Positions 2,965 through 38,487 of a stretch of 64,000 bases of DNA are shown here, piece after piece. The DNA lies in contig NC_092353.1 in assembly GCF_963676685.1 (NCBI RefSeq), positions 20,243,307 to 20,307,306 on the forward strand, given 5' to 3'. Position 1 is the first letter of the stretch, and each line of letters starts with the position of its first letter. This DNA comes from Mytilus edulis. Taxonomy: Eukaryota. A model generated the notes under the pieces. The model was not told the DNA's origin, searched no databases, and saw only the letters and a program-made list of their open reading frames with translations. A program made the translations under genes and the position numbers.

Positions 2965-3235
2965 AAGAATGTGTCCATAGTACACGGATGCCCCACTCGC
3001 ACTATCATTTTCAATGTTCAGTGGACCTTGAAATTGTGGTCACAAATCTAATTTGGCATTAAAAGTAGAAAGATACCATTGTACATAGGAAACATGTGTA
3101 CAAAGTTTCAAGTTGATTGGACGTCAACTTGACCAAACTCTTTAACCTGAAGTGGGACAGACAGACGAATGAATGCACAGACCAGAAAACATAATGCCCC
3201 TACTATTGTAGGTGGGGCATAAAAATCCCTACCTT
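2965..3235. mobile_element. SINE/MITE-like element with 3' hairpin (…CATAATGCCCC-TACTATTGTAGGT-GGGGCATAAAA) inserted in HSP70 intron. Homologous copy at 53975-54245; related hairpin-ended elements at 42395-42560 and 58620-59225.
   Basis: Absent from the paralogous intron copy (2057-2220). ~80% identical to 53975-54245. Confidence 0.6.
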
Positions 3236-3634
3236 TGTCATTGGTAATGGTAAGGCTATTCCTCTTTCCAGTAAGTGTATCTTCTGCAGAAATTGTCAAA
3301 ATACCATTGGCATCAATATCAAAGGTGACAACAATCTGAGGTACCCCTTTCGGTGCAGCAGGTATTCCAGTCAGAACAAATTTTCCCAGAGAGTTATTGT
3401 TCTTGGTCAAAGTTCTCTCCCCTTCATAAACCTGAATTAACACACTGATCTGGTAGTCCTCTGAAGTAGTGAACGTCTGACTCTTTCTAGTAGGAACTGT
3501 TGTATTACGTTTGATAACAGGTGTCATGTGACAATTGCCTGTTTCTATACCAAGCGACAGTGGTGTGACATCTAACAATAGTAAGTCTTGTATTTTTTCT
3601 CTTCTGTAAACTGGTGACCTGGCTGCCTGTTCAG
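3233..3634 (-). CDS. HSP70-family exon encoding the substrate-binding domain, copy 1 (…[15 protein letters not shown]…[17 protein letters not shown]…ITNDKG)
   Basis: Translation matches the HSP70 SBD beta-sandwich almost residue for residue. Acceptor tattatag|CTGAACAGG at 3635; donor GACAAAG|gtaggg at 3232, phase 1. Confidence 0.75.
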
Positions 3635-9750: not shown

Positions 9751-10717
9751 CTGTAACATTTAATGTAAAAATTATTATTATATCAAAGTTAATTCCTTAT
9801 ATAATGCAACTTTTGGTATGTAATTGGTGAGGATAGGTCAAAGGGTAGATTTTTACTCTTTGGACAGGTTGTTGTCTCTTTGACATAATACACATTTCCA
9901 TTCTCAATTTTATTCGACTAAAGTTATTGAAAAATCTGAAAACTGGTTGAAAGTATGACTGAATCCAGGGGCTCAAATTGAATCCACTGATAGGTATTTA
10001 AAAGTACAAAAATTTCGAAAAAAGAAGCTCAAGATATCTTTAATATAGAACATAATGTTCACTGTAATGAAATTTAAAAAAAAACATTGTTTTGTTCTTT
10101 TCGTGATATGATGATCCTTCAGTAAGACTGACAAGTTTTGATTCTTCAGATTGAGTTGTATTCTCCAATGACTTGTTTCAATCATATTACTTTCAAACCA
10201 ATAAACAAGCTATTATCTCTTTACATGAACCTTTCAGAAAATGTCAGCAAATCAAAAGTCAGTGACTTTCACATCTGTTTTTCCACAAACATAAGCACAA
10301 CAAGTTTAACAAGATTGCTATATCCTAGCAAAATATCCCCTGTGATGTATTGATGTTTAGGGGGCCTTTGTAGCTTCCTGTTCCGTGTGAACAAGGCTCC
10401 ATGTTGAAGACTGTACCTTGACCTATAATGATTTACTTTTATAAAATGTGACTTGAATAGAGAGTTGTCTCATTGGCAATCATACCACATCTTCCTATAT
10501 CTATTAAATTGTGTTCCATACTGTGTCTATGTGAGACCATAGTCATAATATGGTTAAAGTCCTTTAACTCCCCTAATAAAGGGATCATCAAATGGGATCA
10601 ATTAAGGGTCAACTTTGTTAGGAAACTCAAGTCTAAAGTTAAATGGAATTGATTCCTCCTGCCTAATTCTTATATGCTTAGCTCTGATTATACTGTATAA
10701 ACACTGGGGGTTCTTTA

Positions 10718-13060
10718 AAACTAGAGGCTCTAAAGAGCCTGTGTCGCTCACCTTGGTCTATGTGCATATTAAACAAAGGACACAAATGGATTCATGACAA
10801 AATTGTATTTTGGTGATGGTGATGTGTTTGAAGTTCTTACTTTACTGAACATTCTTGCTTCTTACAATTATATCTATAATGAACTTTGCCCATTAGTAAC
10901 AGAGAAAAATATTTGGTAAAAATTTACATAAATTTACCAAATTAATGAAAATTGTTAAAAATTGACTATAAAGGGCAATAACTCCTTAAGGGGTCAATTG
11001 ACCATTTAGGTCATGTGGACTTATTTGTAGATCTTACTTTGATGAACATTATCGCTGTTTACAGTTTATTGCTATCTATAATAGTATTCAAGATAATAAC
11101 CAAAAACAGCAAAATTTCTTTAAAAATTACCAATTGGAGGGCAGCAACCCAACAACCGGATGTCCAATTCATTTGAATATTTCAGGGCAGATATATATTG
11201 ACTTGATTAACAATTTAACTCCTTGTCAGACTTCCTCTAAATGATTTGGGTTTCAGAGTTATAAGCAAAAAACTACATTTTACCCCTGTTCTATTTTTAG
11301 CCGTGGTGGCCATCTTGGTTGGATGGCCAGGTCATCGGACACATTTTTCAAACAAGGTACCTCAAAGATGATTGTGGCCAAGTTTGAATTAATTTGGCCC
11401 AGTAGTTTCAGAGGAGAAGATTTTTGTAAAAGATAACTAAGATTTACGAAAAATGGTTAAAAATTGACTATAAAGGGCAATAACTCCTAAAGGGGTCAAC
11501 TGACCATTTCGGTCATGTTGACTTATTTGTAAATCTTACTTTGATGAACATTATTGCTGTTTACAGTTTATCTCTATCTATAATAATATTCAAGATAATA
11601 ACCAAAAACAGCAAAATTTCCTCAAAATTACCAATTCAGGGGCAGCAACCCAACAACAGGTTGACCGATTCATCTGAAAATTTCAGGGCAGATAGATCTT
11701 GACCTGATAAACATTTTTACTTCATATCAGATTTCCTCTAAATGTTTTGGTTTTTGAGTTATCAGCCAAAAACTGCATTTTACCCCTATGTTCTATTTTT
11801 AGCCGTGGCGGCCATCTTGGTTGATTGATCGGGTCACGCCACACATTTTTTAAACTAGATACCCCAAAGATGATTGTGGCCAACTTTGGATTAATTTGGC
11901 CCATTAGTTTCAGAGGAGAAGATTTTTGTAAAAGATTACTTAGATTTACGAAAAATGGTTAAAAATTGACTATAAAGGGCAATAACTCCTAAAGGGGTCA
12001 ACTGACCATTTCCGTCATGTAGACTTATTTGTTAATCTTACTTTGCTTAACATTATTGCTGTTTACAGTTTATCTCTATCTATAATAATGTTCAAGATAA
12101 TAACCAAGAACGGCAAAATTTCCTTAAAATTACCAATTCAGGGGCAGCAACCCAACATCAGGTTGTCCGATTCATCTGAAAATTTCAGGGCAGATAGATC
12201 TTGACCCTATAAACAATTTTACCCCCATGTCAGATTTGCTCTAAATGCTTTAGTTTTTGAGTTATAAGCCAAAAACTGCATTTTACCCCTATGTTCTATT
12301 TTTAGCCGTGGTGGCCATCTTGGTTAGTTGGCCGGGTCACCGGACACATTTTTTAAACTAGATACCCCAATGATGATTGTGGCCAAGTTTGGTTTAATTT
12401 GGCCCAGAAGTTTCAGAGGAGAAGATTTTTCTAAAAGATAACTAAGATTTACGAAAAATGGTTAAAAATTGACTATAAAGGGCAATAACTCCTAAAGGGG
12501 TCAACTGACCATTTGGGTCAGGTTGACTTATTTGTAAATCTTACTTTGCTGAACATTATTGCTGTTTACAGTTTATCTCTATCTATAATAATATTCAAGA
12601 TAATAACCAAAAACAGGAAAATTTCCTTAAAATTACCAATTCAGGGGCAGCAACCCAACAACGGGTTGTCTGATTCATCTGAAAATTTCAGGGCAGATAG
12701 ATCTTGACCTAATGAACAATTTTATCCCGTGTCAGATTTGCTCTAAATGCTTTGGTTTTTGAGTTATAAGCCAAAAACTGCATTTTACCCCTATGTTCTA
12801 TTTTTAGCCATGGCGGCCATCTTGGTTGGTTGACCGGGTCACCAGACACATTTTTTAAACTAGATACCCCAATGATGATTGTGGCTAAGTTTGGTTAAAT
12901 TTGGCCCAGTAGTTTCAGAGGAGAAGATTTTTGTAAAAGTTAACGACGCCAGACGACGACGGACGACAGACGACGGACGACAGACGACGGACGCCGGACG
13001 CCGGACGCCAAGTGCTGGGAAAAGCTCACTTGGCCCTTTGGGCCAGGTGAGCTAAAAAGA
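10718..13060. repeat. Satellite-carrying non-autonomous element (family C). ~5 tandem ~480-bp units starting ACTAGAGGCTCTAAAGAGCCTGTGTCGCTCACCTTGGTC and ending in a (GACGRC)n microsatellite plus perfect hairpin AGCTCACTTGGCCC-TTT-GGGCCAGGTGAGCT-AAAAA.
   Basis: Direct sequence comparison of units. The same 5' head and 3' hairpin terminus recur at 16366-17220, 27146-28444 and 51178-53850. Confidence 0.8.
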
Positions 13061-13299: not shown

Positions 13300-13880
13300 G
13301 AAGAACACTTTACAGGTGAATGATGCCTCAATGATCTATGCCCATGCAATAAGCAATGCCTCAACAAAGACTTCAACTTCCTGATGCCTCAATGATCTAT
13401 GCCCATGCAATAAGCAATGCCTCAACAAAGACATCACCTTCCAGATGCCTTGAGGATCTACGCCCATGCAACAAGTAATGCCTCAACAAAGACATCACCT
13501 TCCAGATGCCTTCAGGATCTATGCCCATGTAATAAGTAATGCCTCAACAAAGACATCACCTTCCAGATGCCTTGATGATCTATGCCCATGCAATAAGCAA
13601 CAAACACATCACCTTCCAAATGCCTTGAGAATCTATGCCAATGCAACAAGCAATTCCTCAACAAAGACATCACCTTCCAGATGCCTTGAGGATCTATGCC
13701 CATGCAACAAGCAATGCCTCAACAAACACATCACCTTCCTGATGCCTCATTGATCTATGCCCATGCAACAAGCAATGCCACAACAAACACATCACCTTCC
13801 GGATGCCTCAAGGATCTATGCCCATGCAACAAGCAATGCCTCAACAAAGACATCACCTTCCAGATGCAAGATGATGCCTT
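13300..13880. repeat. ~60-bp minisatellite (TGCCTCAATGATCTATGCCCATGCAATAAGCAATGCCTCAACAAAGACATCACCTTCCAGA)n, ~10 copies, in intron of the SNAP-25-like gene
   Basis: Direct inspection. ORFs 13466..13753 and 13696..13920 are artefacts. Confidence 0.85.
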
Positions 13881-16130: not shown

Positions 16131-16365
16131 GGCATGAGGGGATGTCAGTCTGGGCTTGAAGCAAAAAGGTTTACAATACCATAATTTCATAATTTCAACA
16201 AGCAAGGGTAAAACACATTGTAACTATTTGCTTTAATATTTATTCCTTTTTTATGAGTTTTAAAGTCTCTCAAATGGATAGGTTGTTAATTAGCAGGTTT
16301 AAATTATAAATCATCAACCTCTATCCAAACCCTTCATCATATTACTGGTTTGAAAACTAGAGGCT

Positions 16366-17220
16366 CTAAAGAACATGTGTAGCTAACCTTGGTCTATGTG
16401 AATATTAAACAAAGGACACAGATGGATTAATGACAAAATTGTGTTTTGATGATGGTGATGCGTTTGTAGATCTTCCTTTACTAAACTTTCTTGCTGCTTA
16501 CAATTATCTCTATCTATAATGAACTTAGCCCAGTAGTTTCAATGAAAACATGTCTGTGAAAATTTACAAATTTTATGAAAATCGTTAAAAATTGACTATA
16601 AAGGGCAATAACTCCTTAGGGGGTCAATTGACCATTTTGGTCAAGTTGACTTATTTTTAGGTCTTACTTTGCTGAACATTATTGCTGTTGTCAGTTTATC
16701 TCTATCTATAATAATAACAAAAAATGGCAAAATTTCCTTATGATGATTGTGGCCAAGTTTGGTTTAATTTGGCCCAGTAGTTTCAGAGGAGAAGATTTTT
16801 TTAAAAGAATACGAAGATTTACGAAAAATGGTTTAAAATTGACTATCAAGGGCAATAACTCCTAAAGGGGTCAACTGACCATTTTGGTCATGTTCACTTA
16901 TTTGTAAATCTTACTTTGCTGAACATTATTGCTGTTTACAATTTATCTTTATCTATAATAATATTCAAGATAATAAACAGAAACAGCAAAATTTCCTTAA
17001 TATTACCAATTTAGTGGCAGCAACCCAACAACAGATTCTCCGATTCATCTGAAAATTTCAGGGCAGATAGATTGATTGTGGTCAAGCTTGGTTAAATTTG
17101 ACCCAGTAGTTTCAGAGGAGAAGATTTTTGTAAAAGTTAACAGACGACGCAGGATGACGACGACGGACGCAAAGTGATGAGAAAAGCTCACTTGGCCCTT
17201 TGGGCCAGGTGAGCTAAAAA
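16366..17220. repeat. Family C satellite-carrying element, copy 2 (~1.7 units, same (GACGRC)n plus hairpin terminus). Lies in intron of the SNAP-25-like gene.
   Basis: Same termini as 10718-13060. Confidence 0.8.
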
Positions 17221-17996: not shown

Positions 17997-18119
17997 TTAA
18001 AATGAAATATTTTTACCAAATTCAGCCAATGACATATCCGATCCTAATGGTCTTATTTCTAAGGTTTCGCCTAGTTCTTCTTGTTCTAATTCTTCTAATT
18101 CTGCTAACAGATCATCATC
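17997..18119 (-). CDS. CHMP4: CHMP4/Snf7 terminal coding exon (DDDLLAELEELEQEELGETLEIRPLGSDMSLAEFGKNISF*). Stop at 17997-17999 unless an internal donor GAATTTG|gtaaaaat is used.
   Basis: Matches CHMP4B DEDELMAELEELEQEELDKNLLEI. Acceptor gattttacag|GATGATGAT. Confidence 0.65.
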   Translation of the reverse strand, partial: DDDLLAELEELEQEELGETLEIRPLGSDMSLAEFGKNISF

Positions 18120-18431
18120 CTGTAAAATCAATTTCAAATTGAGTACAAAATACAGTTGGTTCCATAACTTGAAAGCCAAAAATCAATCAATTGATTGTTC
18201 ATTGTTTAACATTCAGTGTCAAATATTTCATACATGTTCATAATGACAAAATCCATCAATCAGCCCATTGTAAAATTCTTGAGATACCCATGCATACACG
18301 CTTTTGGACGGATGAGCTGCTATTACTTTTATCACAAATTGCCAAAAAATCCACTAAAGGCGAAGCTGGTAATCTTATGTAATTCATGTACATATCATGT
18401 CCACTGGCACTGGTATTCAGCATACTATGTC

Positions 18432-19253
18432 CACAGTGTGGGAACGGAACTGTACGGTGTTTTAATATTTTTGTCATTCGGGAGACTGTCAAGCGGTGCT
18501 CCGACATTCGAAAAACAACAAGTTGATGAATGTAAGATTTGATTAACACAAACGTTACAATATTAAGTTTCTGTTTAAAGATTTGGTAACGAAAACATTC
18601 TACACATATATATAGACCAATCAAATGCTGTAAGCAACATATACAGCCAGACGTTTTCTATTAAACGGTTGAGCTCCAAGTAAATCGCTCAAAATTCTTG
18701 TTTCTCATGAATACTGTAGTCAAAATCATTACTCTGCTCCCAAGCGACACTACAGAACTGCTCCAAGTGATAATACAGTCGAAAGTTGTTTACCGACAAG
18801 CGACCGTACAGTGAAAAATATTTAGTGACTTCTGTTTTCAAAGATTTAGAACTATTTTCTAGTGTAAACATGGTGAAGTTGAATATGATGAAAAAATATA
18901 TAATAATTCTTATTACACAACTTAAAATTTTGTTAAAAAAACCTTTTAAAGTCAGATTTTCAGCTGAATGAAGGCAATCACTTGCATAATTTGGGTCGGA
19001 GCTCTTACTTTTATTCCATTTTTTTCCATGTTTTCTTGCCTCTAGAATATTTTTTGACCCCTGGAATGTTTGAATATTATTGACAGATGCAATACTTTTC
19101 TCATATGCATTAAAAGTGAGCCCAGAGATAGTAATTATATAAAACAATTACTTCTTCGTAGCTGAAAATGCTCTCGAATGTCGGAGCCCCGCTTGACAGT
19201 CTCCGGAATGACCAAAACATTAAAACACCGTACAGTTCCGTTCCCACACTGTG
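18432..19253. mobile_element. Non-autonomous Transib-like DNA transposon (822 bp), ~95-bp TIRs beginning CACAGTG, flanked by 5-bp TSD ATGTC (18427-18431 and 19254-19258)
   Basis: Left end …catactATGTC|CACAGTGTGGGAACGGAACTGTACGGTGTTTTAAT… Right end …ATTAAAACACCGTACAGTTCCGTTCCCACACTGTG|ATGTCcc. The arms are reverse complements over ~95 bp. A 5-bp TSD with CACNGTG termini is the Transib/RAG-like hallmark. No transposase ORF. Confidence 0.7.
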
Positions 19254-20003
19254 ATGTCCCTTCTGTCAAAATTTGGGTTTTAACAAAGTTGGTTATGTGA
19301 TAGAACTACAGATTTTAAAATTATTCTTATTATCAATTTATTAATTCATTTAACAGATCTTATATGAAGTATTAAGTATAACAATTATATCAACTGGACT
19401 GTTTTTTTTAGAGAATAATTGTACCCCTTAATAAATTAATTTGTACATAATATATTTATTCATTAAATTTGAAGAATTGTCTGAGCCGTGTATATGACTT
19501 CCGTTATCAACTGCTTCTGGTATATATCATGTGCTTCTGGCTAGTATGACATGCCTTTCTTAAATGTTATTGCAAAGCATTTCGACATCATTCTGCAAAT
19601 TTTAGAAAATTAACCTCAGTGGTACATTTTAATGAAAAACATACTAGAAATGCTATGTTATAATCTATATATCGTTATCTTACATTACCTTTCCAATAAC
19701 AACACATGCAATTCCTAAATAAATACTAAGCTATTGTTGGAACATGAACTAGATTATTATTCAAATGTTTGAGAAATGTGAATAAGCCCTCAGACCTGAA
19801 TCAAGAGGGTTCCAAAAAAACTTGATTGTAGGTAATTCTTTGATTTTTGTTGTTGCTGTCTAACTGAAGTATATCGCACATCCCCTTTATTTTCTAACAG
19901 CTATCAGATCACCCTTGTGTTTCTGCAATCCATATACCATTGAGTGTAAGTTTCTTTAATGTCCAGTGGCAAATATATCAAGAGTGTGCATGACAATACT
20001 AAC

Positions 20004-20088
20004 CTCATCTGCTGTCAATCCAAAATAATTAGTAGAAATAGCATCACATATTTCATCAGACACTAGATTATGAACATGGTCAATATCC
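20004..20088 (-). CDS. CHMP4: CHMP4/Snf7 exon (RDIDHVHNLVSDEICDAISTNYFGLTADE)
   Basis: Matches CHMP4B DIDKVDELMQDIADQQELAEEISTAIS. Acceptor ttccccag|GGATATTG. Donor GATGAG|gttagt. Phase 2 to 0. Confidence 0.7.
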
Positions 20089-22274
20089 CTGGGGAAAAAA
20101 CATAAAAAGTACATTTATGTTATATAAAGAAAGAAAAAAGAATAGTCGGCTTTACATCAAAAATGATTTTTCCTCTCAGAGTCTGAAAGGAAAACTTTTC
20201 AACTTTGATCATACAAAGAGGCGAAAACTAGCTTCAAGTACTCTTTGAACTGTACTTTGTGTCTTTAGTCTTTTGGTTAGTTGTTAATTGTTTTATATGT
20301 GTCAATCTAATGAGTGTTGTCCTTTTCAATTGATTATAATAGTTTGTTTTTATGTTGTGCTGCTACACCGCTGTCCTACATATTTGTTTTTCCTTAATTG
20401 TTATAGCTTACTAAATAGTATGGGTTTTGCTCATTGTTGAAGTATGATGAAGAAAATGAAATTGGATTTTTAAGTAAAGAATTCATAAATATGAGATATT
20501 AAACATTTAAGGGAATACGATACAGTAGCAGGGGCAGATAATAACGTTGTCGAAACTTGTCATGTTGTTTCCGCGACGTTGTTAATCAGAACGTTGTGAT
20601 TTCGCGATGTTTCTAATAAGAACGATTACATTTTGCGACGTCGCTTTAGATGTATTCACATTTGCGGAAAATTCATTGACGTCATAAACCCGGTTGGGCG
20701 GATTTGAAAAAAGTACCTGCTAAAAAAATTGTCCATATCACAAGAATTGTTATATTTATTCATTATTAATTAAAGTTAAGAAGTTAAGAAGTAAACAGTA
20801 TTAACTTGAAATGAGAAAAAAAAATCAAATCCACATACAAAATTTTATATGTGTTTTATTTCATATAGGAAATGAATAAAAGATATGTAAATAATAATAC
20901 GTCGCTGAGACAGAAACCCAACTACACAAAAAGCCCAATAAGTAATTTAGGTATCAACGTACTATCTTGATAAATATTTAGTATCTACACTATTTGGCAA
21001 ACTATAAATCGTACGGAGAATTTCACTGATAATTTTAACAGACTATCAACAAAATGACAAAATAACATAATAAATAAAGAAAACGACTCCTACTGATTCT
21101 GACTTTGAATAGGTAAATTCTTGAAAACGTTAAACGGCAATTTAGAATTTAACCAAGTGTATGTGTATGAAGAAGAACTGTCAGTTAAAAAGAAACAGTC
21201 ATAAGCACGGTACGTATTATAGAACAAAGCATCCGTTGATGTGCTAAGTATATCCTTATGTACATATTGAGAGAAAAAAATGGCACTCAGGAATTAGGTA
21301 TCTGACTAACCAGGAAAGTGTTCACACGTTGCAGCTCATGATGTTAAGCTGCTGACCAAAGACAACAAATATGAAGTTACTCTGTGAGGTAGTATCTTAG
21401 ATAAGAAAAAAATATTTCTTGGACCACGGAACGGACGGACAAACAATGTGGTTGCACCTACTCCTAGATTGGAGGTCTTATTCAGAAAAGTAAGGGAACG
21501 GCCATTTAACGTCAAAGTTAGAAAGGGAGAGGGGTAATGTTTTTCCCCATAAAGAAATGTTGTGGTCAAGCAGGTGACAAAATTAATTAAAATTCTGAAT
21601 CCAGATGTTTCCTGTTCCTTAGGCTATATTGTCCAATTTGTTCAATTTTGAAAAAAAATTGATTGATGGAGTCGAAAAACGAAAACTTAAAAAAAAATGT
21701 CCTAATAAATGGTTGCTCTCTACGTCATTAATTATATGTACCATAATAAAAGAGAATACCCCGAAAACAAGCTTAGGTAACTTATCTAATGATACAGAAT
21801 CATGCAATTTCATGCTCTAATACCGACGGCTGTACTTCCAATAAAATGTTAAACTACACCGTAATGGACTATGTTGAATAATTACGACATAAATTTGTTC
21901 AAGACCGCTCTAAATATTCACTTTTTATATATGTTCAGAGTAGTGCCTAAGTTGACCTGATTTAATGTGGATATGGTTTTGTTTTCATATAATGCCTATA
22001 GAGTAGGCCGTTAGTTTTTCTTATTTGAATCGTTTCACATTTTCATATCGGGGATTTTTAAAGCTGAATAATTACATTAGATGTATGTTTCATTATAATA
22101 CTTTATTCTCATTGGCTAACTGCACATCACGTGTTATTCCGTAAGCAGTTGCATTGCTCAATACAACTTTTCATTCATGATAACACGTGGTCTAACAATA
22201 AAGTGCACAGGTGAATTAAATTAAAAAAAATATGTAAAATACGTGTTTTCATGATCAAAGCTAAAAAATGTAAT

Positions 22275-22435
22275 TATAAGTATTGAATGCTTCTTTTTGT
22301 AACTTTATAGGGTTGTAAAAGCGTTGACCGTGCGCACATTTTTAGAATGAAGCGCTTCCGCGCTTCATACAAAATGTACTTCGGTCAACGCTTTTACACT
22401 CCAATAAATTTACAAAAAGAAGCATTCAATTCTTA
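22275..22435. repeat. Nested perfect palindrome / foldback. Outer IR GAATGCTTCTTTTTGTAA…TTACAAAAAGAAGCATTC; inner IR GTAAAAGCGTTGACCG…CGGTCAACGCTTTTAC; central GAAGCGCTTCCGCGCTTC. Lies in CHMP4 intron. MITE-like.
   Basis: Reverse-complement symmetry read directly. Confidence 0.6.
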
Positions 22436-24413
22436 ACTAATCGGTGTGGCTTTTGTTTTTGTTTTGTTGCAGGCCGTATAGGTTGCACTTTGTAAATCAC
22501 GTGTGATTTGCAAGTCACGCCTCTTTTGGGGAGAAATTGAATGTGCATAAAATACTGCTACTGTTTACATAGTTGTTGCCACGGATGCAAAGTAATTTTT
22601 TTTTAATTAAGACTTGATTGGAGAATTAAATGGATATAAATAAAAATGTCTATTTATTTAACTTATTTTTCAGGAGGACTGGAAGACATTTGGGTGTTGA
22701 GTCAAATTTAATGGAAAAATTCAGTGCGAACCTGCAATGTTTATAAATGGAGGGCAGTAAAACTTGAAAATATGCCGCACAGCTATATGTTTTTATTAGT
22801 GCAAAAAAAAGTAGTGCATGTCTCCTTTCCAGGGAAATATAACATTCTCCTCAAAACTTCCTGAATGAAGAGTGACTGCATATGCAATTTAGGCAGTTCC
22901 TATGGAAAACTGCATTGCTGGTTTTACACAAGTGCAACCTATAGTGACCTTTACTTCATTTATCTTCATCATTTGTCCTGATTATAATGTTTTCACATTG
23001 TGTCATGTCGGGGCCTTTTGAATTATTAAAACTGTTATACTCAGCTGTGTTGTCTACATGAATTGTAGGACTTATGCACATTTTTTTTTTATCAGATTTA
23101 ACTTTTTTGTTTTCAAACGTCTCTTTTCTAAAAGTAATTTACTAGAATACTTTTTGTCTAGCCTTCGATTTTAGTCGACAAAGCGAGACATAGCGATCCT
23201 ACATGCCATCGTCCACAAATATTCACTCTGTTGTTAAAAGTTTTTGAAATTTTAATAACTTTTTAAACTAACCTGGAATTGTACCAAAGCTTGTGTATGA
23301 TCAATGGATAGTATCTAGAAGGAAATTTTGTTACATTTTGTACCTGTTTTCTGTATTTTACTAATAATTTGACTTAGTTTTTCTTCCAGTTAACATTACA
23401 TACAGTCTGCAATTAAAGATTTAAAAAAAAATATTAGATTCATAAACTATTCTGGAATTTTACCAAACTTGGAAAAAGCTTCTTACAATCTAAAGATATA
23501 GTATCGAAAGAAATATTTTTATTTTAATTTTTTTCTGCTTTTTTGTTGAGTCTGCTATTAATAGCAAAAGTAGGCGAGACACTGGGTTCCGCGGAGCCCT
23601 TACGAATTTTTCTATCCAAGTATCATAACAATTCATAAAGGTTTGGCAAATATTTTATACTATATTACGGATAACCACTATATTACGGATAACCAGCTTT
23701 ATAAATTTTGATGATTAATATCATTGCTTTCGAAAAAAAATCTTGGCTATACCACTGAACTTGACAGCGTAGTTGTGACCGGCGGGAAAGTTATCATGAC
23801 GTTGTTGCGATTAAAACTTATTTTAACGTAGTTTAGCGCCTTATTGGCAAACGTCCCGTTTGCCATTAAAAATCAATGTTTATTGCTTTTATTGAAAAAA
23901 CAAGCACATGGACCCCCAGTTTTTTCTTTTGCAATCAATTAAGTAATGTTAAAAGAACGCTTCGCCAAAATTTAAAGGAAAAATCAACGATCAAATTTTT
24001 TCTGCACCTCTGAATAGAATCACAAATGTTGTCAATTTCTTTATTTCACTAATACATGTAGTAATATAAATTCAGAAAATAACAATTTAGTTTAACCTTA
24101 AATTTGTTATACATTATGTTGATGCCATAGATCTAGGGATCATTTCACAAAAAACCTGGTTAAGTTATGACTGTTCGTTCAAAAGTATTGTTACTTTCCG
24201 TAAAAGTCCTTATTTATGGAATTTCTGGGTTTTTACCTCAAAGATGCAAATTTCAAACCAAATTATCTGAAAAAGTAAGTCATGAAGGTATATTTTTCTT
24301 TGCATATTTCGAAAGTACACATTAAAATTGACCTTGTACCAAACTTTCAAGAAAAAATCAACGAGGAATCTCTACTGTATCGTATGCCCTTAATGCATTT
24401 ATTGGATTTTTAC

Positions 24414-26974: not shown

Positions 26975-29258
26975 AAATGCTCTGCAGGGCGCAGCTAGAT
27001 ACGACCGCAGAGGTTGAACTCTGAACAGTTGGAGCAAGTATGGACACAATATTCAAGCTGGATACAGCTCTGAATTTGGATTGTGATTAAATATTTGACA
27101 CAGCATAGGTTTCTGACACAGAATGAATGTGGTTTAATGAACTTAAACTAGAGGCTCTAAAGAGCCTGTGTCGCTCACCTTGGTCTATGTGAATATTAAA
27201 CAATGTACACAGATGGATTCATGACAAAATTGTGTTTTGGTGATGGTGATGTGTTTGTAGAGCCTACTTTACTAAACATTCTTGCTGCTTACAATTATCT
27301 CTATCTATAACAGTACTTTCTGTGGAAAATGTTATTGAAAATCTTCAAATTTTAAGAAAATTGTTAAAAATTGACTATGAAGGGCAATAACTCCTTAGGG
27401 GGTCAATTGACTATTTTGGTCATACTGACTTATTTTTAGTTCCTACTTTGCTGTACATTATTGCTGTTTACAGTTTATCTCTATCTATAATAATATTCAA
27501 GATAATAACCAAAAACAGCAAAATTTCCTTAAAATTACCATTTCAGGGGCAGTAACCCAACAACCGATTATCCGATTCATCAGAAAATTCCAGGGCAGAT
27601 AGATCGTGACCTGATCAACAATTTTCCTTCCTGTCAGATTTGCTCTAAATGCTTTGGCTTTTGAGTTATAAGCCAAAAACTTCATTTTACCCCTATGTTC
27701 TATTTTTAGCCATGACAGCCATCTTGGTTGGTTGGGCGGGTCACCGGACACATTTTTTAAATTGGATACCCCAATGATGATTATGGCTAAGTTTGGTTAA
27801 ATTTGGCCCAGTAGTTTCAGAGGAGAAGATTTTTCTAAAAGATTACTAAGATTTACGAAAAATGGTTAAAAATTTACTATACAGGGCAATAACTCCTAAA
27901 GTAGTCAACTGACCATTTTGGTCATGTTGACTTATTTGTAGATCTTACTTTGCTGAACATTATTGCTGTTTACAGTTTATCTCTATCTATAATAATATTC
28001 AAGATAATAACCAAAAACAGCAAAATTTCCTTAAAATTACCATTTCAGGGGCAGCAACCCAACAACGAAATGTCCGATTCATCCGAAAATTTCAGGGCAG
28101 ATAGATCTTGACCTGATGAACAATAATACCCCTGTCAGATTTGCTCTAAATGCTTTGGTTTTTGAGTTATAAGCCAAAAACTGCATTTTACCCCTATGTT
28201 CTATTTTTAGCCATGGCGGCCATTTTGGTTGGTTTGCCGGGTCACTGGACACATTTTTTAAACTAGATACCCCAATGATGATTGTGGCCAAGTTTGGTTA
28301 AATTTGGCCCAGTAGTTTCAGAGGAGAAGATTTTTGTAAAAGTTAACGCAGGACGACGACGGACGACGAACGACGACGACGGACGCCGGACGCCAAGGGA
28401 TGAGAAAAGCTCACTTGGCCTTTCTGCCAGGTGAGCTAAAAAATTTAATTTACTTATGATGTTCCAAGATCCAAAATCTACATGGCCATGGATTGATTCA
28501 GCATATCAAAGAATCACAAGAATTCATTTTTTTATGAAATCAAACAATGTTTAATTTTGGACCCTTTTGACCTCAATGGCGAAATCTAAGGATTTTCTTA
28601 TGCCAAGCATAGATTACCTTAGCCAATTTTGGCACAACTTTTTGGAATTTTGAATCCTCAATCCTCTTCAACTATGTATTTGTTTGGCTTTATATCTTTT
28701 TTAATATGAGCGTCATTGATGAGTCTTATGCAAACAAAAGGTGTGTCTGGTGTACTTAATTATAATCCTGGTACCTTTAATTTGATAACTATTGACCTAA
28801 ATGTGGACCAATTTGATAACAGGGCCCAAAAATCAGAAAATCAAAATACATGGTTAGATTTAGCATATCAAAAAACCTGTTACATTCAATTTTTGTTGAA
28901 ATCAAACAAAGTTAAATTTTGGACCCCAATTTTGACCAACTTGAAAACTAGGCCCATAATCAAAAATCTAAATACATGTCTAGATTAAATAGCATATCAA
29001 AGAACCCCAAGAATTCAATTTTTGTGAAAATCAAACTAAGTTTAATTTTGGACCCTTTGGACCTTAATGTAGACCAATTTCAATCCCAACCTCCCTTTTG
29101 TGGTTTCAAACCTTCTTTTTAAATTTCATAGAGATTCATTTTCTTAAACTAAAGTTATTGTCTGGAAACTTAGTGTCTTTGGATGATGCTGACGACTACA
29201 ACATGATACCAATATATGACCGCAAAATATTTTTGCAGTCGTATAAAAACCTAGGACC
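26975..29258. mobile_element. Family A composite element enclosing a family C satellite module (27146-28444) and ~100-bp repeat module; tail TTTTTGCAGTCGTATAAAAACC
   Basis: Head at 26975-27140 is ~90% identical to 620-790. Tail at 29225-29258 has the same hairpin motif. Confidence 0.6.
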
Positions 29259-29934: not shown

Positions 29935-31590
29935 CAGATGCTCCGCAGGACGTAGCTTTATACGACCGCAGAGGTTGAACCCTGAACGGTTGGGGCAAGT
30001 ATGGACACAACATTCAAGCTGGATTCAGCTCTAAATTTGGATTGTGATTAAATAGTTGACACAGCATAGGTTTCTGACACAGAATGAATGTGTTCTAATG
30101 AAGTTAAAATTTTTGTTTTCTCATAGAGCAATTCACTATGCTGTTGAATATTAATCCTCTCAAAAAAATGTTTGAAGAAATTTTCTTTTTTATTTATGAA
30201 ATTTCAAATGAGAAAAATTGAACCCAATTTTTTTAATCACATCCCCCTTTCCCTTATTCCAAAACTAATCTCAATTAAAATTTCTAATGGAGTTTGCAAC
30301 AATAACTACTCATTTAAATACATCATAAAATATTAAGATGTAAAAAAACTGCTTGTTATCACTGAATGGTAAAGATTATTTTAATTTATCAGTTGGTTGT
30401 AAAAAGTGAATATACATTGTATATTGTATATAACAAAGATTTAAGTTGATTCTGGACAAAGAAAGATAACTCCAATTAAAAAAAAATCTTGCTATTGCAC
30501 AATATTTTGCAATTAGATATTTCTTGCTTACTATTCTGGACAAAGAAAGATAACTCTAATTAAAAAAAAATTTGCTATTTCACAATATTGTGCAATTAGA
30601 TATTTCTTGCCATTGCACAATACTGTGCAATTGAAAAGACTTGCTATTGCACAATACTTAATATAATAATTTTAGATCCTGATTTGGACCAACTTGAAAA
30701 CTGGGCCCATAATAAAAAATCTAAGTACATTTTTGGATTCAGCATATCAAAGAACCCCAAGATTTCAATTTTTGTTAAAATCAGACTAAGTTTAATTTTG
30801 GACCCTTTGGACTTTAGTGTAGACCAATTTGAAAACATCACCAAAAATGAAGAATCTACATACACAGTTAGATTTGGTATATCAAAGAACCCCATTTATT
30901 CAATTTTTGATGAAATCAAACAAAGTTTAATTTTGGACCCCGATTTGGACCAACTTGAAAACTGGGCCAATAATCAAGAATCTAAGTACATTTTTAGATT
31001 CAGCATATCAAAGAACCTAACTGATTCATTTTTTGTCAAAATCAAACTAAGTTTAATTTTGGACCCTTTGGACCTTAATGTAGACCAATTTGAAAACGGG
31101 ACCAAAAGTTAAGAATCTACATACACAGTCATGACAGTTAGATTCGGCATATCAAAGAACCCCAATTATTCAATTTTAATGAAATCAAACAAAGTTTAAT
31201 TTTGGACCCTTTGGGCCCCTTATTCTGTTGGGACCAAAACTCCCAAAATCAATACCAACCTTCCTTTTATGGTCATAAACCTTGTGTTTAAATTTCATAG
31301 ATTTCTATTTACTTATACTAACGTTATGGTGCGAAAACCAAGAAAAATGCTTATTTGGGTCCCTTTTTGGCCCCTAATTCCTAAACTGTTGGGACCTAAA
31401 CTCCCAAAATCAATACCAACCTTCCTTTTGTGGTCATAAACCTTGTGTTAAAATTTCATAGATTTCCATTCACTTTTACTAAAGTTAGAGTGCGAAAACT
31501 AAAAGTATTCGGACGACGACGACGACAACGCAGACGACGACGCCAACGTGATAGCAATATACGACGAAAATTTTTTCAAATTTTGCGGTC
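29935..31590. mobile_element. Family A composite element (head 29935-30100; 40-bp minisatellite 30480-30660; ~100-bp repeats 30660-31230; (GACGAC)n plus hairpin tail TATACGACG…GCGGTCGTATAAAAAA at 31500-31590)
   Basis: Head and tail alignment with the other copies. The ORF at 30684..31112 is an artefact of repeat translation. Confidence 0.6.
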
Positions 31591-33513
31591 GTATAAAAAA
31601 TTGTCAAGGTTTCCTTACTTTTATATTTCAGAATATAATGACAGTAACAATAGTAACACATGTGAGAGCTTTCTGTGAAATGGTCTCAGAAGAGATGCCT
31701 CCACGAGGTGTTATAGTCACAAAACTCCAAAATATGTTAGGATCACACAGAAGGTTAAATATAAACATCTACAAATAATGGCATAAAATCCTTTTTTGGT
31801 AAGCAGATAAATTTTTAGAACAATAGACTATTTTCATATTACTGACTTTTGACTCCAGAGTTTGTTTTTTTTAGGCAGGTTAACTTATCTGTAGTTGGAC
31901 ATCCTGGTACTCTGACTAGTAGGAGCAACTTCGAGTTAAAGAAGTAAAAATCAAGCTTGTGACAATTTAGGGGGGAAAGGAGTAGGTCCGGTAAGGACCG
32001 ATTTTGGCCTCAAATTTCAGGTTCATCTGACGAAAGATTTTGACCACTTTTTAAACGCTTTAGGGGGTTCGCGGGTCTAAATCATTTATATAGGATTTCT
32101 CTATATTTTTCTATAAATGAACTTTATCTTATAGTTAACAGAAAAATAAAATAAAAAAGTGGGGTCACCGTTCATTTGCGCTCACAATCTGCCTTCGAAA
32201 GAAGCATACATTTTTGTAAAGGTGGTTTTTTTCTGTTGAAGTAATAGGAGAAATAAAGGTAATATCGAAAAAAAAGAAAGAAATTTATTACAGAAATCGC
32301 TCAAATTTTACAATAATTTAGTTTAAGTACAGCTTATATGGAAATTATATTAAAAAATATAGGTCACCGATGAGTTAAAAAAGATATTTCAATTTTAAAG
32401 CCAAAAAATGGCATTTTTCCACCAAAGGGAGATAATTTGGAACTTTTTCAATGATGTATACATTTTAAAAGTCATCTGGGGCCAACACGAATTGTTTGTT
32501 TTGAATGATTTTTGTACCATATGATAAGTAACAACTACAAAAGGTAACAAATAAAATTTGACATGAAAAACAAATATTTATTTTTTTTCTGAAATTCTTA
32601 TACCCTCGAGCCTCCTTAAGTGTCTATTTCATTTGATTCAATTAGTTTATGTGAAAGATTTTAACTGATTTAGTCATTAAAAATAATCCGATTCAAGCTC
32701 AAATATGAAAAATCTACCAAATATGCCGAAAAATGTCACTTTTCAGATGGTTTTTGTCAAAAATGAAAGTGGCCGCATCTGTGTTCATCCACAACCTTTA
32801 TATATGTTATGTATTATCATCAAATACAACTTACATTTCAATATTAAGGATGAACACGAATGCGGCCACTTTTGTTTTACACCGAAACCGTTTAAAATTT
32901 AACTAAAATGCTAGAATTGTGGAGATTTCAGTAATTTAGCATGACTTAATGGTGCTACTACCGGATATATGTGCATTGTATTGTCAACAGCCCATATTTA
33001 TGTAGCAGAATAAAATTGAGAATGGAAATGGGGAATGTGCCAAAGAGACAACAACCCGACCATAGAAAAAAACAACAGCAGAAGGTCACCAACAGGTCTT
33101 CAATGTAGCAAAAAATTCCCGCACCCGGAAGCGTCCTTCAGCTGGCCCCTAAACAAATATATACTAGTTCAGTGATAATGAAAGCCATACTAATTTCCAA
33201 ATTGTAAACATTCTTCTGTCCAATAAATAACTAAAAGTTTACATTTTAATAATTTTGTAAAACTGCTATATTTTGGGGCCAAAAAGGGGTCTTACTGGAC
33301 AAACTCCTTTAGTTTTACTTTTTCTTTATAGGACAAATTACGGAAAACAGAAAACTTTTCCAAAAAATCGCACCAATTAGAGGTTTGATTTTACTTCTTA
33401 TTGTTGCTCTTTCTTGACTTGAGTACTAGGATGTCTTACCACAGAATAGGTACCTTTTGAAGCAAAAAAAATCTGGAGTCATAAGTGGGTTATATGAGAA
33501 GTCTATTGAGTAC

Positions 33514-33610
33514 CTGTCTCTCCTTCCCAGTTCAGGTAGGTAAGGAAGTCCACATCTTCTCTATCAACGAACTCTGATATAAATGGTCCCTCTGACGATA
33601 CTACCTCATC
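33514..33610 (-). CDS. PARP4: PARP4 exon 25 (DEVVSSEGPFISEFVDREDVDFLTYLNWEGET)
   Basis: Matches PARP4 ENESPFPDIPKVSELIAKEDVDFLPYMSWQGEPQ. Acceptor catttgtag|GATGAGG. Donor GACAG|gtactcaat, phase 1. Confidence 0.85.
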
Positions 33611-34401
33611 CTACAAATGTTTAATAAACAATCTCTAATAAACAAGTAGAGGCTTTTAAAATGTTTGTGTATATAATCAAGACAGCCATCATAAATGTGT
33701 TGCTTTTAAAACAGTAAATTCAGATATAATTTGTGATGTTTTTAATATTGAGAAAATTGCAACAGTATAAGCTTTGCAAAAATGAAAACTTCTTTTTCAA
33801 ATTTTGCTTGTTTTATTTGTATTTAAAAATTGCAATAATTAATCTCCCAATTTTGTCAATTGATCAACAATCCATCACAATAAAAAAATTCATGCTAAAA
33901 TTTCTCAATATATTAGATCTCTTCAGGATTTTGAAAAGCCACAGACATATTCCCAAGTTTTAGAAATGGTTTAATCTTCTTTAAAAATATCTGTTAAATA
34001 TAATGGCAGTGACTCAGGTTGGATACATCAATTACAGAAGACAGATTTTATATCATTTCTAAAAAAAATAATCATAATCGGTTAATAATCAACAGTATAA
34101 AGATGTTAACATAAGTTTTAGTTTTATTTTACATTAAGGTAGCACAATACAAAGATTTTTCATCCCCAATCAGTAAACCTTAACATTAATAAAAGAACAA
34201 AAGTATTAGGTCTTTGTTTTTTAAACAGTGTGCATATTTGTTAGAATAACATGTTTTATGTGGTCTATCACTTTCGTGTAAGATATGTTATTTTACTGGT
34301 AGCTTTATAAATAGGTAATAAAAGCAATCAGCAACAAGACTTTGAGATGACTACGGATTTTTTTTTTTTTTTTTTTGTTATACACAAAATTTCAGTATTA
34401 C

Positions 34402-34503
34402 CTTTTCTCTTTTCTCTACAGCAATAAAGCTTGTCAACTGTGTAACAATGGAATATTTCTTACTCAGTTCTATTATATAGTCTTTCATATTCATCTTCTT
34501 TAA
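34402..34503 (-). CDS. PARP4: PARP4 exon 24 (LKKMNMKDYIIELSKKYSIVTQLTSFIAVEKREK)
   Basis: Matches PARP4 MKKQTLKSLIIKLSKENSLITQFTSFVAVEKRDE. Acceptor tattttag|TTAAAGAAG. Donor GAAAAG|gtaatact. 102 nt. Confidence 0.9.
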
Positions 34504-35218
34504 CTAAAATATAGAAATTGAATGCAAGATGAAGAAATAGTCAAGATGAAGTACAATTCTAATGCGATAAGTATGTAACCATTTTTTTCATTGGCTAATA
34601 GTTACCGTCAAATCCACAGTTGACCAGGCGTAACTAAGGAGGGACCCACCATTTTGAATTGATTGGATCAACAAATGTTCGATTACTACAAAATTATCGA
34701 AAGTAAAACAACAACTACCTTGAATTCTTCGTTTTAATGTAATTTTATCCAATTATATTTGAATCCTAGAGGTAACGTAATAACCTCCAGTTTGTAAGTT
34801 TTCATTTGTATGACTTCACGTTTAGCCATGACGTCTTTGCGCTAAAATCAGTCATGAAGTTTCACAGAATTTTTTTGTATGTCAAATCTATACCCTTTTT
34901 AATACTTTAATCTAAGATTCTCTTTATTTATTGATGAAAATTAGAAGTGACAATATCTATTGCATGCAGGGGGGTTCTGATCCCGGATCCCACTTACTGT
35001 TTTGTCAGATTCCCATATCCGGCTTACACTATGTATGTAAGCAATTCTCATTTTTTTGTAATTTCCCCGTGTCCCGCTAGACTTCATTTCCTGTTTTCAC
35101 GGCACAATAATTTGACTTTCACGTGTTAAGCTTACAAAAAAATCATCAATCCCGCGTCAGGTTTAGACCTCAATGAGACCCACTGCAAGGTCAGCTCTAT
35201 TATAAAGCATAATTATAC

Positions 35219-35299
35219 CTGATGGTCAATACTGTCAGGGGAGAGTACTCCATCTTCCCAGTCTCTGATCACAGCTTTAGCAGTCAGGCAGTGAAGAAC
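35219..35299 (-). CDS. PARP4: PARP4 exon 23 (VLHCLTAKAVIRDWEDGVLSPDSIDHQ)
   Basis: Matches PARP4 MIHKLAARALIRDYEDGILHENETSHE. Acceptor attgacag|GTTCTTCAC. Donor CATCAG|gtataatta. 81 nt. Confidence 0.8.
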
Positions 35300-35748
35300 C
35301 TGTCAATGTTAAAGTTACAGATTCATATTTGATGATTTAATATAGTGATTTAATTTTATATCAGAAACATTGCTTTTAACACTTTTGAAATGATGCTTTT
35401 AAATTATCTCCAGAACTTATTTTTAACATTATCTGGCCGTTTAAGTATAATCATATCTACCAATATAGATATGAATATAGTATTCAAGAATTGAAGGGGC
35501 ACTAGCTGTCAAATTTATGTTCCCACATTTGACTCATATTCTCACATTTGATTTTAATAAAACAATGTAAATAATTTATCAAAATTATAAAAAATCTGAA
35601 AAAAAACATTGCAAGTTATACACTGTCCATACTAGAGACTATATTTGTAGACAAAGAAAAGCAAAGGATGATAACTCTGTCCTCAGAACTTCTATTGTAA
35701 AACACATATAGCACCTTGTAAATTTCAAAATTGCTATTTATTTTTTAC

Positions 35749-35829
35749 CTTTCCTTTCGTCATACTTAATTCTGATGTGTACACTACTGTTGATATCTGT
35801 TGCCCTCCTATCTCAGCCTTCAATGTAGC
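35749..35829 (-). CDS. PARP4: PARP4 exon 22 (ATLKAEIGGQQISTVVYTSELSMTKGK)
   Basis: Matches PARP4 ATLCALIQEKEFRTMVSTTELQKTTG. Acceptor tattttag|GCTACATTG. Donor GGAAAG|gtaaaaaa. 81 nt. Confidence 0.75.
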
Positions 35830-36657
35830 CTAAAATATACAAAATCAAAGCCATTTCAATTGATATTGTATAGTGTTTTATATGTTGTGATGTAACATTA
35901 TTGTTTCAGGTTAGGGTGAAGGTTGGCGCCCATTAAAAGGTTTAAACCTAATGCATTTGTTAATTTGCACTAAATTTCTAAAGTCAAAAACCTGATGTTC
36001 TGTGATTGTTGTTTGTTTATATGGTTCATAAGTTTTTCTCATTTCTTGTTTTTTTTTATATATATTAGACTGTTGGCTTTACTGTTTGAATGTTTTTTTA
36101 CACCTTTATAACTTGTTGTTCAGTGTGAGCTAAGGCTCCTAGTTGAAACCTATGACCTATAATGGTTTATTATTTACAAATTATGACTTGGATAGAGAGT
36201 TCTCTCATTGGCACTCATACCACATCTTCTTATACTATTAATTTCTTGGTTATCTGTATAAATTTCAATTCATTAAAATACAATGACTATTAATACTCTT
36301 AATATGGCTAAAAAATCTGTTAAGGAGAACCATATATGTAACTGTAAATTCAGAAATTATTACGTGCATCTGTTACTGCGATTTTGTCATTTAAGTTATG
36401 CAATATTGATAAAAATCCTATTTAATTCATATAAAAAATTCAAAATGAGAGTTTAAATTATTGCCATTATAAGCCATTTTCCACAATAATAAAAACATCG
36501 CAATAATTTCTAAATTTACAGTACTGAGAGGACAATAAATCAGGTCCTAAAATACTTGTTCTAGTTTTTATACTTCAAAATCAATTGTCAAATTGTCAAT
36601 TTCCTTGAAGATGAAAAATTCCACTTTGCCGAATCAACAATTGTCCTACATAATTAC

Positions 36658-36822
36658 CATTTTGCAATTGCTGACAAATCCATATACCACAAGTCTGGAG
36701 CCATTAAACAGAGCTGTGATTTGTTGTGGAGCTTGAACTGGAGGAGGATTATCAAACTGTTGCCAAACAACTGATACAGAGGTCAGCACTGGCTGAGAGG
36801 TCTTCTGAATTTGGGATTTCAC
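36658..36822 (-). CDS. PARP4: PARP4 exon 21 (VKSQIQKTSQPVLTSVSVVWQQFDNPPPVQAPQQITALFNGSRLVVYGFVSNCKM)
   Basis: Matches PARP4 IEDQMTRLCSPSCHSVSVKWQQLNPDVPEALQAPAQVPSLFLNDRLLVYGFIPHCTQ. Acceptor gtttacag|GTGAAATCC. Donor AAAATG|gtaattatg. 165 nt. Confidence 0.9.
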
Positions 36823-37284
36823 CTGTAAACAAAGAATTAATTAGCCCCATCATATATTAAATGATCAACATATTTTTGAAAATGTCTTGCAAATTGTATA
36901 TAAAATAATAAAAGGGGCAATAAATTCTATTTTTGATAGCTCAATACCACACAATGTTTAAAGATGTACAATGCCATCACATATATATTTTAGCAGTAAA
37001 ATGTTATTTGTTTACATTTTCCCCACACTTACTCTACCACACACTTCCTCCTATCTGAACTGAGAAAAATAATAGTGAAACATAGAATTTACCATAACAT
37101 ATATATGCTATCATGAAATAAACAGTCACAAAGAAATCTTACTGAAACAACAATATAATATAAAATTACAAAAACATGTACTTACAAATATATAAAGTAA
37201 TGCTGTTCTTTGCTTATTGTAACTTATTTCCATAAACTTTAAAAAAATAAATATGCATCTATCTTTAAACATGTCACATCTTAC

Positions 37285-37384
37285 CTTACTTTCCCACTTT
37301 GATTTTGCATGAGAATCAAAATATTCAAAGGAACCTGCTCCAAGTCTGGACATAGCCTTTAATACATGTTTGTTAGCAATAGAA
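37285..37384 (-). CDS. PARP4: PARP4 exon 20, vWA end (SSIANKHVLKAMSRLGAGSFEYFDSHAKSKWESK)
   Basis: Matches PARP4 STANRHVLRILSQCGAGVFEYFNAKSKHSWRKQ. Acceptor atttcag|TTCTATTGC. Donor AGTAAG|gtaagatg. Confidence 0.85.
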
Positions 37385-37970
37385 CTGAAATATAAGTAAA
37401 CAATGTTTTTATTTACATCAATACTCACACAGCACACTACCTTTTGTCCTGAAAATGTACCTTAATAATTATCAAATTAGTACAGGTACTTCCAATCTAT
37501 TTTATTATTTGTGGCATAGCAGTGCGAAATACTAGTGTTGTTTTTTCTCTCGACACAACACAACTGCAATGGTATTTATATGGTATGGTACTCACATTGA
37601 GTGTGGAAGGGTATGGGTTTGCTTGTTATCAGAATCAAAACAAAGACTTTAAAATTGGTATTTGGCTGCTTCTCTGCTAACAATACAGTATTATTGAGTT
37701 AGAATAGAACACCAGCTGGTAAGAAATTCACATAATGTGTGCAGGTAAGTTGTCAGATCTTTATTTCAACTATTACCACAGAACTAGCACTGGAAGAATC
37801 TGAAAATCTGGCTCAGAATTCAGTCTGCTACACAACAGTGTTCATAGCCATATCAAATACTGCTTCCATCCTAAATATGCTTTCAATTATTTTTCACAAT
37901 ATAAAATACTTTTTCTTATAACTTATGAATAAATTGTAAATACACACATTTGTTTTAAACATTTGCTTAC

Positions 37971-38158
37971 CTGACACCAAATGTAAAGATCCTTGTGTGT
38001 TGACAATTGTCATGAACAGCTTTAAGAGTTGTCTCCTCATTATTAATATGGCCGTCAGATAATATAAAGACATTTCTCAAAGAGTTCTCCGGCTTTAGGA
38101 GGAAGAAACTGTGGAGAGGGCGATATACCTCTGTGCTTCCCATATTAGCATGTATTCC
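37971..38158 (-). CDS. PARP4: PARP4 exon 19, vWA (GIHANMGSTEVYRPLHSFFLLKPENSLRNVFILSDGHINNEETTLKAVHDNCQHTRIFTFGVS)
   Basis: Matches PARP4 TMGNTDFWKTLRYLSLLYPARGSRNILLVSDGHLQDESLTLQLVKRSRPHTRLFACGIG. Acceptor ttttacag|GGAATAC. Donor GTCAG|gtaagcaa. Confidence 0.8.
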
Positions 38159-38413
38159 CTGTAAAAGTATACCAGATATTCATTTATGATATTTAATCAA
38201 GACTTCCTGAAATCATTCATAATATTGTGTAGAATATTATACAAATCAAAAGACATGACTGTTTACCTTTATTTTTCATCAAGGAATTATAATTTTGCTC
38301 TCAAATCAACTTATTACATTATTATACAATACTTTATAAATTAATTCAACAATCATGAACAATAAATGTGAAGAAAATAAAAACTAAAAGCTAGTAAAGT
38401 CTAAATGCAATAC

Positions 38414-38487
38414 CTGAACAAACTGTTCTGCAACCTTCAGAGTACTTTTTGATTTCATTTGGCTGGTTGGGAATAATTCTTTATAAC
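38414..38487 (-). CDS. PARP4: PARP4 exon 18 (CYKELFPTSQMKSKSTLKVAEQFVQ)
   Basis: Matches PARP4 GYKELFSYPKHITSNTMAAEFIMSA. Acceptor ttacctag|GTTATAAAG. Donor TTCAG|gtattgc. Phase 1 to 0. Confidence 0.75.

Follow-up and report, generated by a model that had tools for sequence, protein, structure and literature searches.

A non-autonomous DNA transposon with Transib-like termini within a CHMP4-like gene of Mytilus

An 822-bp stretch of Mytilus edulis DNA, bounded by inverted repeats that start with CACAGTG, lies within an intron of a gene related to CHMP4/Snf7. Its ends recall those of the Transib transposons and the heptamer of the RSS, and the original prediction, made from the letters of the sequence, was that of a Transib-like non-autonomous element. 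The locus raises the question of whether this stretch is a transposon and, if so, to which superfamily it belongs and which enzyme would have moved it.

The host intron and the anatomy of the element

The window, i.e. the whole 64-kb stretch of DNA that was analysed, is eukaryotic, repeat-rich and has a G+C content of 32%. Pfam matches that form recognisable genes correspond to HSP70, EF-hand, Snf7 and a PARP4 set (BRCT, PARP, VIT and VWA); the remainder consists of one FLYWCH finger and a small number of weak matches that stand in isolation. This zinc-finger match occurs in an isolated ORF of the plus strand (52671-52970; E = 7e-5), and the FLYWCH domain is frequently tied to transposon-derived genes. 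Two fragments of the HSP70 substrate-binding domain, which are 92.6% identical to each other, were found on the minus strand (2208-2600 and 3220-3612) and represent either duplicated exons or pieces of a pseudogene.

The CHMP4/Snf7-like gene is carried by the minus strand, with exons located at ca. 25391-25239, 24592-24434, 20088-20004 and 18119-18000. Identity to its best database matches reaches only 56-57%, which indicates a divergent paralogue, and protein searches with CHMP4 and PARP4 returned, among the matches listed, none above ca. 57% identity over most of the query together with short stretches of ca. 80%. The element sits within a 1.9-kb intron (ca. 18120-20003) between the last two recognisable exons. 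The upstream one (20004-20088; …RDIDHVHNLVSDEICDAISTNYFGLTADE) has AG/GT boundaries that were read from the sequence; the downstream one (18000-18119; DDDLLAELEELEQEELGETLEIRPLGSDMSLAEF…) is open to a stop codon and overlaps a segment (18007-18235) that is conserved at 34897-35125 of a second M. edulis contig, L001 (see below). Judging from its sequence, the downstream exon is probably the last coding one. The element had been placed in the last CHMP4 intron: its position between the last two recognisable exons stands, and the term "last" is plausible because the downstream exon reaches a stop codon. The insertion is intronic and has no demonstrated effect on the host gene.

Reading the region directly and with repeat finders delineated an element of 822 bp, the length first proposed, at 18432-19253. 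Its left terminal inverted repeat (TIR) occupies 18432-18511 on the plus strand and its right one, defined by repeat finders and by gapped alignment, 19174-19253 on the minus strand. Both arms are 80 nt long and complementary, without gap, at 76 of 80 positions (blastn E = 4e-31), the outermost 35 nt being identical between them. The ca. 95 bp initially attributed to the TIRs was an overestimate, since similarity collapses past position 80 when the terminal 130 nt are aligned with gaps allowed. The terminal sequence is CACAGTGTGGGAACGG. The outer edge of the arms is exactly CACAGTG, found at 18432-18438 on the left and as the last bases, CACTGTG, on the right, and this motif is identical to the RSS heptamer (7/7), a likeness that had been noted from the start. 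No complementarity extends into the flanks. These share no similarity, whether compared directly or as inverted sequences, and the possibility that the element visibly lies within a larger inverted-repeat element was rejected on these grounds.

Both ends are abutted by a perfect direct repeat, ATGTC (18427-18431 and 19254-19258), the target-site duplication (TSD) that the original prediction had recognised. When duplication lengths of n = 2-10 were tried at the boundaries of the element, n = 5 was the only one to match, and the probability of a five-base match arising by chance, given the composition of the window (68% A+T), is p = 0.283^5 or ca. 0.002. When the 64 kb were scanned for CAC...GTG termini that combine 12 or more complementary bases out of 14 with a 5-bp duplication, this element was the sole match, and none was obtained in 20 shuffles. 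Taken as single-stranded DNA, the element forms a long terminal stem (z = -13 relative to shuffles).

The TIR is roughly half G+C outside positions 29-41, which form an A/T-rich island, TTTTAATATTTTT (18460-18472, plus strand), located where the nonamer of a Transib or RSS23 end would fall; this island is suggestive only. Between the arms lies a non-coding region of 662 bp (18512-19173), in which three loose repeats of CAAGCGAC-N2-TACAG give a weak signal on the plus strand (18734-18812). These motifs and the TIR arms have short words in common (CAAGCG, GCTCC and CCGTACAG), and could be vestigial binding sites or a product of chance.

Being short and non-coding, with 80-nt TIRs and a 5-bp duplication, the element has the structure of a MITE; 822 bp is at the upper size end for this class. 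With this anatomy, an exact 5-bp duplication, no coding capacity and an intronic position, the stretch at 18432-19253 is, with high confidence, a non-autonomous cut-and-paste DNA transposon.

Coding capacity, copies and the corresponding locus of a second contig

None of the ORFs of at least 55 aa overlapping the element (the one of 152 aa at 18692-19147 and those at 18259-18657, 18774-18968, 18210-18539 and 19138-19305) matches a Pfam transposase, and the 152-aa ORF matches no Pfam family whatsoever. Likewise, the 64-kb window contains 232 open stretches of 55 aa or more, and no transposase or RAG1 family and no transposon-related Pfam domain was detected among them, in keeping with the prediction that the element has no transposase ORF. 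The element region has no Rfam match, and comparing all of its six-frame peptides to 5.8 billion proteins, with the aim of finding ORFs called on other copies, revealed no homologue.

A second copy was found neither in the remaining 63 kb of the window nor in the 41-kb M. edulis locus L001, the copy count thus covering ca. 105 kb of Mytilus DNA. Two TIR patterns (the 26-nt tip, and a 31-nt inner block with 30 bases specified) had no match in IMG/VR, JGI metagenomes and GTDB genomes, these collections being essentially without mussel DNA, and a literature search on the terminal sequence returned nothing relevant. Exact look-ups covered 20 ORFs from the element, its surroundings and other parts of the window (18 distinct ones, plus two versions of the EF-hand exon ORF with alternative starts) and gave matches for the EF-hand exon alone. 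The Logan contigs that match this conserved exon are at most 2.1 kb long and terminate 5 kb before reaching the element. Identity to the window amounts to 96.5-97.5% in short Logan contigs, which come from a series of sequencing runs. Two gene calls of this collection (L004, 805-1095, and L005, 502-768) contain in-frame stops under the standard and bacterial codes, which indicates that some calls in it use another code or are artefacts.

The contig L001 (GCA_905397895.1) was reached through the PARP4 query, which matched a Mytilus edulis protein also bearing EF-hand domains. This contig encodes that PARP4/EF-hand protein and its gene order, PARP4, EF-hand, Snf7 and HSP70, matches that of the window. 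The two sequences are collinear and display 85-96% DNA identity, introns and intergenic DNA included. At the protein level, exons are mostly 88-100% identical where the gene model of L001 uses the same exons, with lower values where the model departs from them. These comparisons place the window in a Mytilus genome that is near to, yet distinct from, the assembly of L001. Two L001 gene models fuse neighbours: the first (10001-31082) joins PARP4 to the EF-hand gene and the second (31353-41082) joins Snf7, HSP70 and a PARP4_MVP-ID piece. Such fusions may be why the CHMP4 query shows no close Mytilus match among the matches listed.

Homology between the window and L001 reaches 19762 and restarts at 18235. 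The segment in between (window 18236-19761; 1526 bp) is replaced in L001 by 645 bp of other repeats (34252-34896), so that haplotypes or species differ in structure here. The 1526-bp segment is composed of the element and of 196 bp and 508 bp of flank, both of which are unique; the 645 bp of L001 are made up of two different repeat families similar to window positions 58765-59205 and 41071-41197. The haplotype represented by L001 lacks the element and the insertion site too. An empty site in a related haplotype or species would read ...GCATACT ATGTC CCTTCTG... (...GCATACTATGTCCCTTCTG...), with a single ATGTC; L001 does not provide it, the element having been replaced together with both of its flanks.

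A positive control for the empty-site approach was provided by a second element of the same locus. In the adjacent intron of the CHMP4-like gene, a non-coding element of 3879 bp (20511-24389) is bordered by TTAA at 20507-20510 and 24390-24393 and has inverted ends of ca. 18 bp (GGGAATACGATACAGTAG / GGGCATACGATACAGTAG); from its sequence, the TTAA would represent a duplication as in Kolobok or piggyBac. This element is absent, leaving a perfect single-TTAA empty site, from L001 (32284-32287) and from the Logan contigs L002 and L003. Such clean empty sites designate it as a polymorphic or lineage-specific insertion, and indicate that cut-and-paste transposition has taken place at this locus. Inside the TTAA element (22277-22435) is a near-palindrome of 159 bp with 83% self-complementarity, which resembles a small MITE of the hairpin type and may have a TA or TTA duplication.

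Several other repeats were observed in the window and in L001. A satellite with a 61-bp unit spans ca. 0.55 kb in the window (13321-13867) and ca. 2.8 kb at the same position in L001 (37673-40461), and a 39-bp unit that is single in the window (19846-19893) occurs as a minisatellite of ca. 20 copies in an intron of L001 (33355-34134). A dispersed repeat is present in five copies (10700-13050, 16350-17220, 27145-28450, 51176-52314 and 53235-53818); it contains internal tandem units of ca. 500 bp that are 85-93% identical and resembles the tandem-repeat-bearing mobile elements known from bivalves. A second abundant interspersed family, with short internal tandem units, is found at 800-2050, 28450-29160, 30570-31600, 45720-46030 and 47585-47770 of the window and in several copies in L001 (3800-6760). 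Finally, a PARP4 intron contains a 21-bp tandem array of ca. 33 units (48995-49685) giving rise to spurious long ORFs (…SITQPQY…).

Superfamily assignment and proposed mechanism

Transib elements are defined by 5-bp duplications and by ends composed of CACAATG, a 23-bp spacer and the A-rich nonamer AAAAAAATC, in which CAC is invariant (PMC1131882, Kapitonov & Jurka 2005). CAC and a 5-bp duplication are also what RAG, ProtoRAG and RAG-like elements have in common (PMC7204232). The CAC...GTG ends and the 5-bp duplication of the mussel element are hallmarks of this Transib/RAG-like group, and make Transib its best structural fit; on both arms, the heptamer agrees with the Transib consensus at 6 of 7 positions. 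On a broader scale, members of the CMCT clade (EnSpm-Mirage-Chapaev-Transib) have CA...TG termini and duplications of 2-5 bp (PMC12730594). Since Transib is the 5-bp member of this clade (PMC1131882), the combination of CA...TG ends with a 5-bp duplication again favours it. Overall, we moderately favour the view that the element belongs to Transib sensu lato (Transib or RAG-like) and represents a single intronic insertion in the CHMP4-like gene. Of the original classification as Transib-like, the non-autonomous nature, the CAC ends and the 5-bp TSD are retained, but the superfamily is not established, owing to the nonamer, the G+C content of the target, the RAG-like consensus and the hAT5 group, as detailed hereafter.

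The region where the nonamer is expected agrees with AAAAAAATC at 4/9 positions in the left arm and at 3/9 in the right one, when ca. 3/9 is expected by chance, and it is T-rich on the heptamer strand. The target ATGTC has a GC content of 40%, whereas Transib/RAG targets are GC-rich, as described for Transib in PMC1131882; because this preference is statistical, a single site that departs from it is weak evidence. The 80-bp TIR also exceeds the 38-bp region that is conserved among Transib families. Finally, a DDE survey of mollusc genomes, mostly from bivalves, recorded one Transib signature vs thousands for hAT and Tc1/mariner (PMC10294476), and this near-absence lowers the prior for Transib relative to hAT5.

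The hAT5 group is composed of hAT elements having 5-bp rather than 8-bp duplications, as defined in PMC12730594, which cites Kapitonov & Jurka (2007); a 5-bp TSD is hence not exclusive to Transib, and ATGTC would fit a non-autonomous hAT5 element moved by a hAT transposase. Such an origin agrees with hAT being among the richest DDE superfamilies of the surveyed mollusc genomes, in which Transib is nearly absent (PMC10294476), and with CACAG matching the hAT motif YARNG at 4 of 5 positions, the A of position 2 and the G of position 5 being among those that fit. We nevertheless regard it as unlikely, if worth serious consideration, because the third base of the element is C where YARNG demands a purine (PMC3014272), the score being against the general hAT motif and not against the ends of hAT5 families, and where G is found in 22 of 22 hAT families compared (PMC1131882). 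The partner enzyme could otherwise be that of the RAG-like (RAG1L-RAG2L) family B of pteriomorph bivalves, the element then being a non-autonomous derivative of this family and a sub-case of Transib sensu lato. In oysters and pearl oysters, family B elements, some of them non-autonomous, have CAC ends and invariably 5-bp duplications, and RAG1L/RAG2L genes are present in the mytilids Modiolus and Bathymodiolus (PMC7204232). This derivation appears very unlikely, however, as the terminus of the element agrees with the protostome RAG-like consensus CACTWMCAAACKTYKBB (PMC7204232) at 6 of 17 positions only, three of which are CAC itself, and has TGG in place of the AAA conserved at positions 8-10; in addition, Mytilus is not named in the RAG-like survey (PMC7204232).

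The combination of 5-bp duplications and CA...TG ends might also belong to another or undescribed lineage, for instance to an uncharacterised branch of the CMCT clade, which new lineages are still joining and whose members have CA...TG termini in common and duplications of 2-5 bp (PMC12730594). We consider this distinctly unlikely, given that the 5-bp class within CMCT is Transib and that nothing observed demands a new lineage. That there is no transposon at all, and that a local inverted duplication or foldback happens to be flanked by an ATGTC repeat, is scarcely credible: although a single copy was seen and L001 differs from the window by a larger rearrangement (1526 bp vs 645 bp) instead of a clean presence or absence of 822 bp, complementarity stops exactly at CAC/GTG, a perfect 5-bp repeat (p of ca. 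0.002) abuts both ends, the flanks are mutually unrelated and shuffles yielded no such structure. Tc1/mariner, piggyBac, Kolobok, PIF, CACTA/Chapaev/Mirage, canonical hAT, P, Mutator, Merlin, Polinton and Ginger were all rejected by duplication length or by termini. Duplications correspond to TA for Tc1/mariner, to TTAA for piggyBac and Kolobok, and measure 3 bp for PIF, 2-4 bp for CACTA/Chapaev/Mirage and 7-10 bp for canonical hAT, P, Mutator and Merlin; Polinton has 6-bp duplications with AG...CT ends, and the ends of Ginger are TG...CA.

Under the Transib assignment that is preferred here, both inverted repeats would be bound by a RAG1-like DDE transposase whose gene lies elsewhere in the genome; this enzyme would nick the DNA beside the terminal CAC and free the element, with hairpins remaining on the flanking DNA. 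The two 3'-OH ends of the element would then attack the target 5 bp apart, and gap repair would duplicate the 5 bp into ATGTC/ATGTC. These transposition steps are drawn by analogy from HzTransib, ProtoRAG and RAG. A nick-and-hairpin mechanism is likewise used by hAT transposases. As for the partner, a single-gene Transib is favoured over the RAG-like B family known from bivalves. The Transib label is provisional, with a single copy behind it, and we infer the superfamily, the partner enzyme and the chemistry alike.

The element is an ordinary non-autonomous DNA transposon that probably adds to a known superfamily. Its arms differ at just 4 of 80 positions, which argues against an ancient insertion. 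Should the Transib assignment hold, a mussel family would join a superfamily with few records in molluscs, and the element would point to a RAG1-like transposase in Mytilus which, from the same 4 of 80 differences, would have been active fairly recently. A more specific proposal is that Mytilus has a recently active, canonical Transib lineage, with one RAG1-like gene and distinct from RAG-like B, of which the 822-bp element would be a passenger. This proposal is rather unlikely; were it true, a phylum with one Transib signature in the DDE survey would contain ends in which a perfect RSS heptamer is joined, at a spacing like that of RSS23, by an A/T-rich block. An element belonging to Transib would be of modest interest for the natural history of RAG and Transib; taken alone, it alters nothing that is known on transposition or on the origins of V(D)J recombination.

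Relation to known systems

Among the systems compared, hAT5 elements (Kapitonov & Jurka 2007, cited in PMC12730594), which carry short terminal repeats, resemble the mussel element by their 5-bp duplications. The mussel element also has the A at position 2 and the G at position 5 that are typical of hAT, but its third base is C and not the purine of YARNG. HzTransib of Helicoverpa zea is the source of the assumed mechanism, i.e. a nick and hairpin at CAC followed by 5-bp staggered integration. HzTransib is an autonomous insect element whose transposase has been characterised both biochemically and structurally (cited in PMC10629977 and PMC7204232), and it is likened to the mussel element by mechanism and not by end sequence.

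The RAG-like family B (Martin et al. 2020, PMC7204232) resembles the mussel element by its pteriomorph bivalve hosts, which include mytilids, by its CAC termini and 5-bp duplications, and by the existence of copies reduced to TIR-TIR without genes. The mussel heptamer is closer, however, to Transib CACAATG (6/7) and to RSS CACAGTG (7/7) than the terminus is to the consensus of family B (6/17).

Finally, the non-autonomous Transibs TransibN1-3_AG, TransibN1_DP, TransibN1_DM and TransibN1_SP (PMC1131882) were defined from many copies and tied to autonomous Transibs, whereas the mussel element is known from one copy. They were described in insects and sea urchin vs a mollusc for the element reported here, and their conserved terminus extends over 38 bp vs an 80-bp TIR; unlike them, the mussel element has a target that is not GC-rich and an unconvincing A-rich nonamer. 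Both are nonetheless short and non-coding, have TIRs that start with CAC in an RSS-like heptamer, are flanked by 5-bp duplications and are assumed to depend for their mobility on a RAG1-like enzyme acting in trans.
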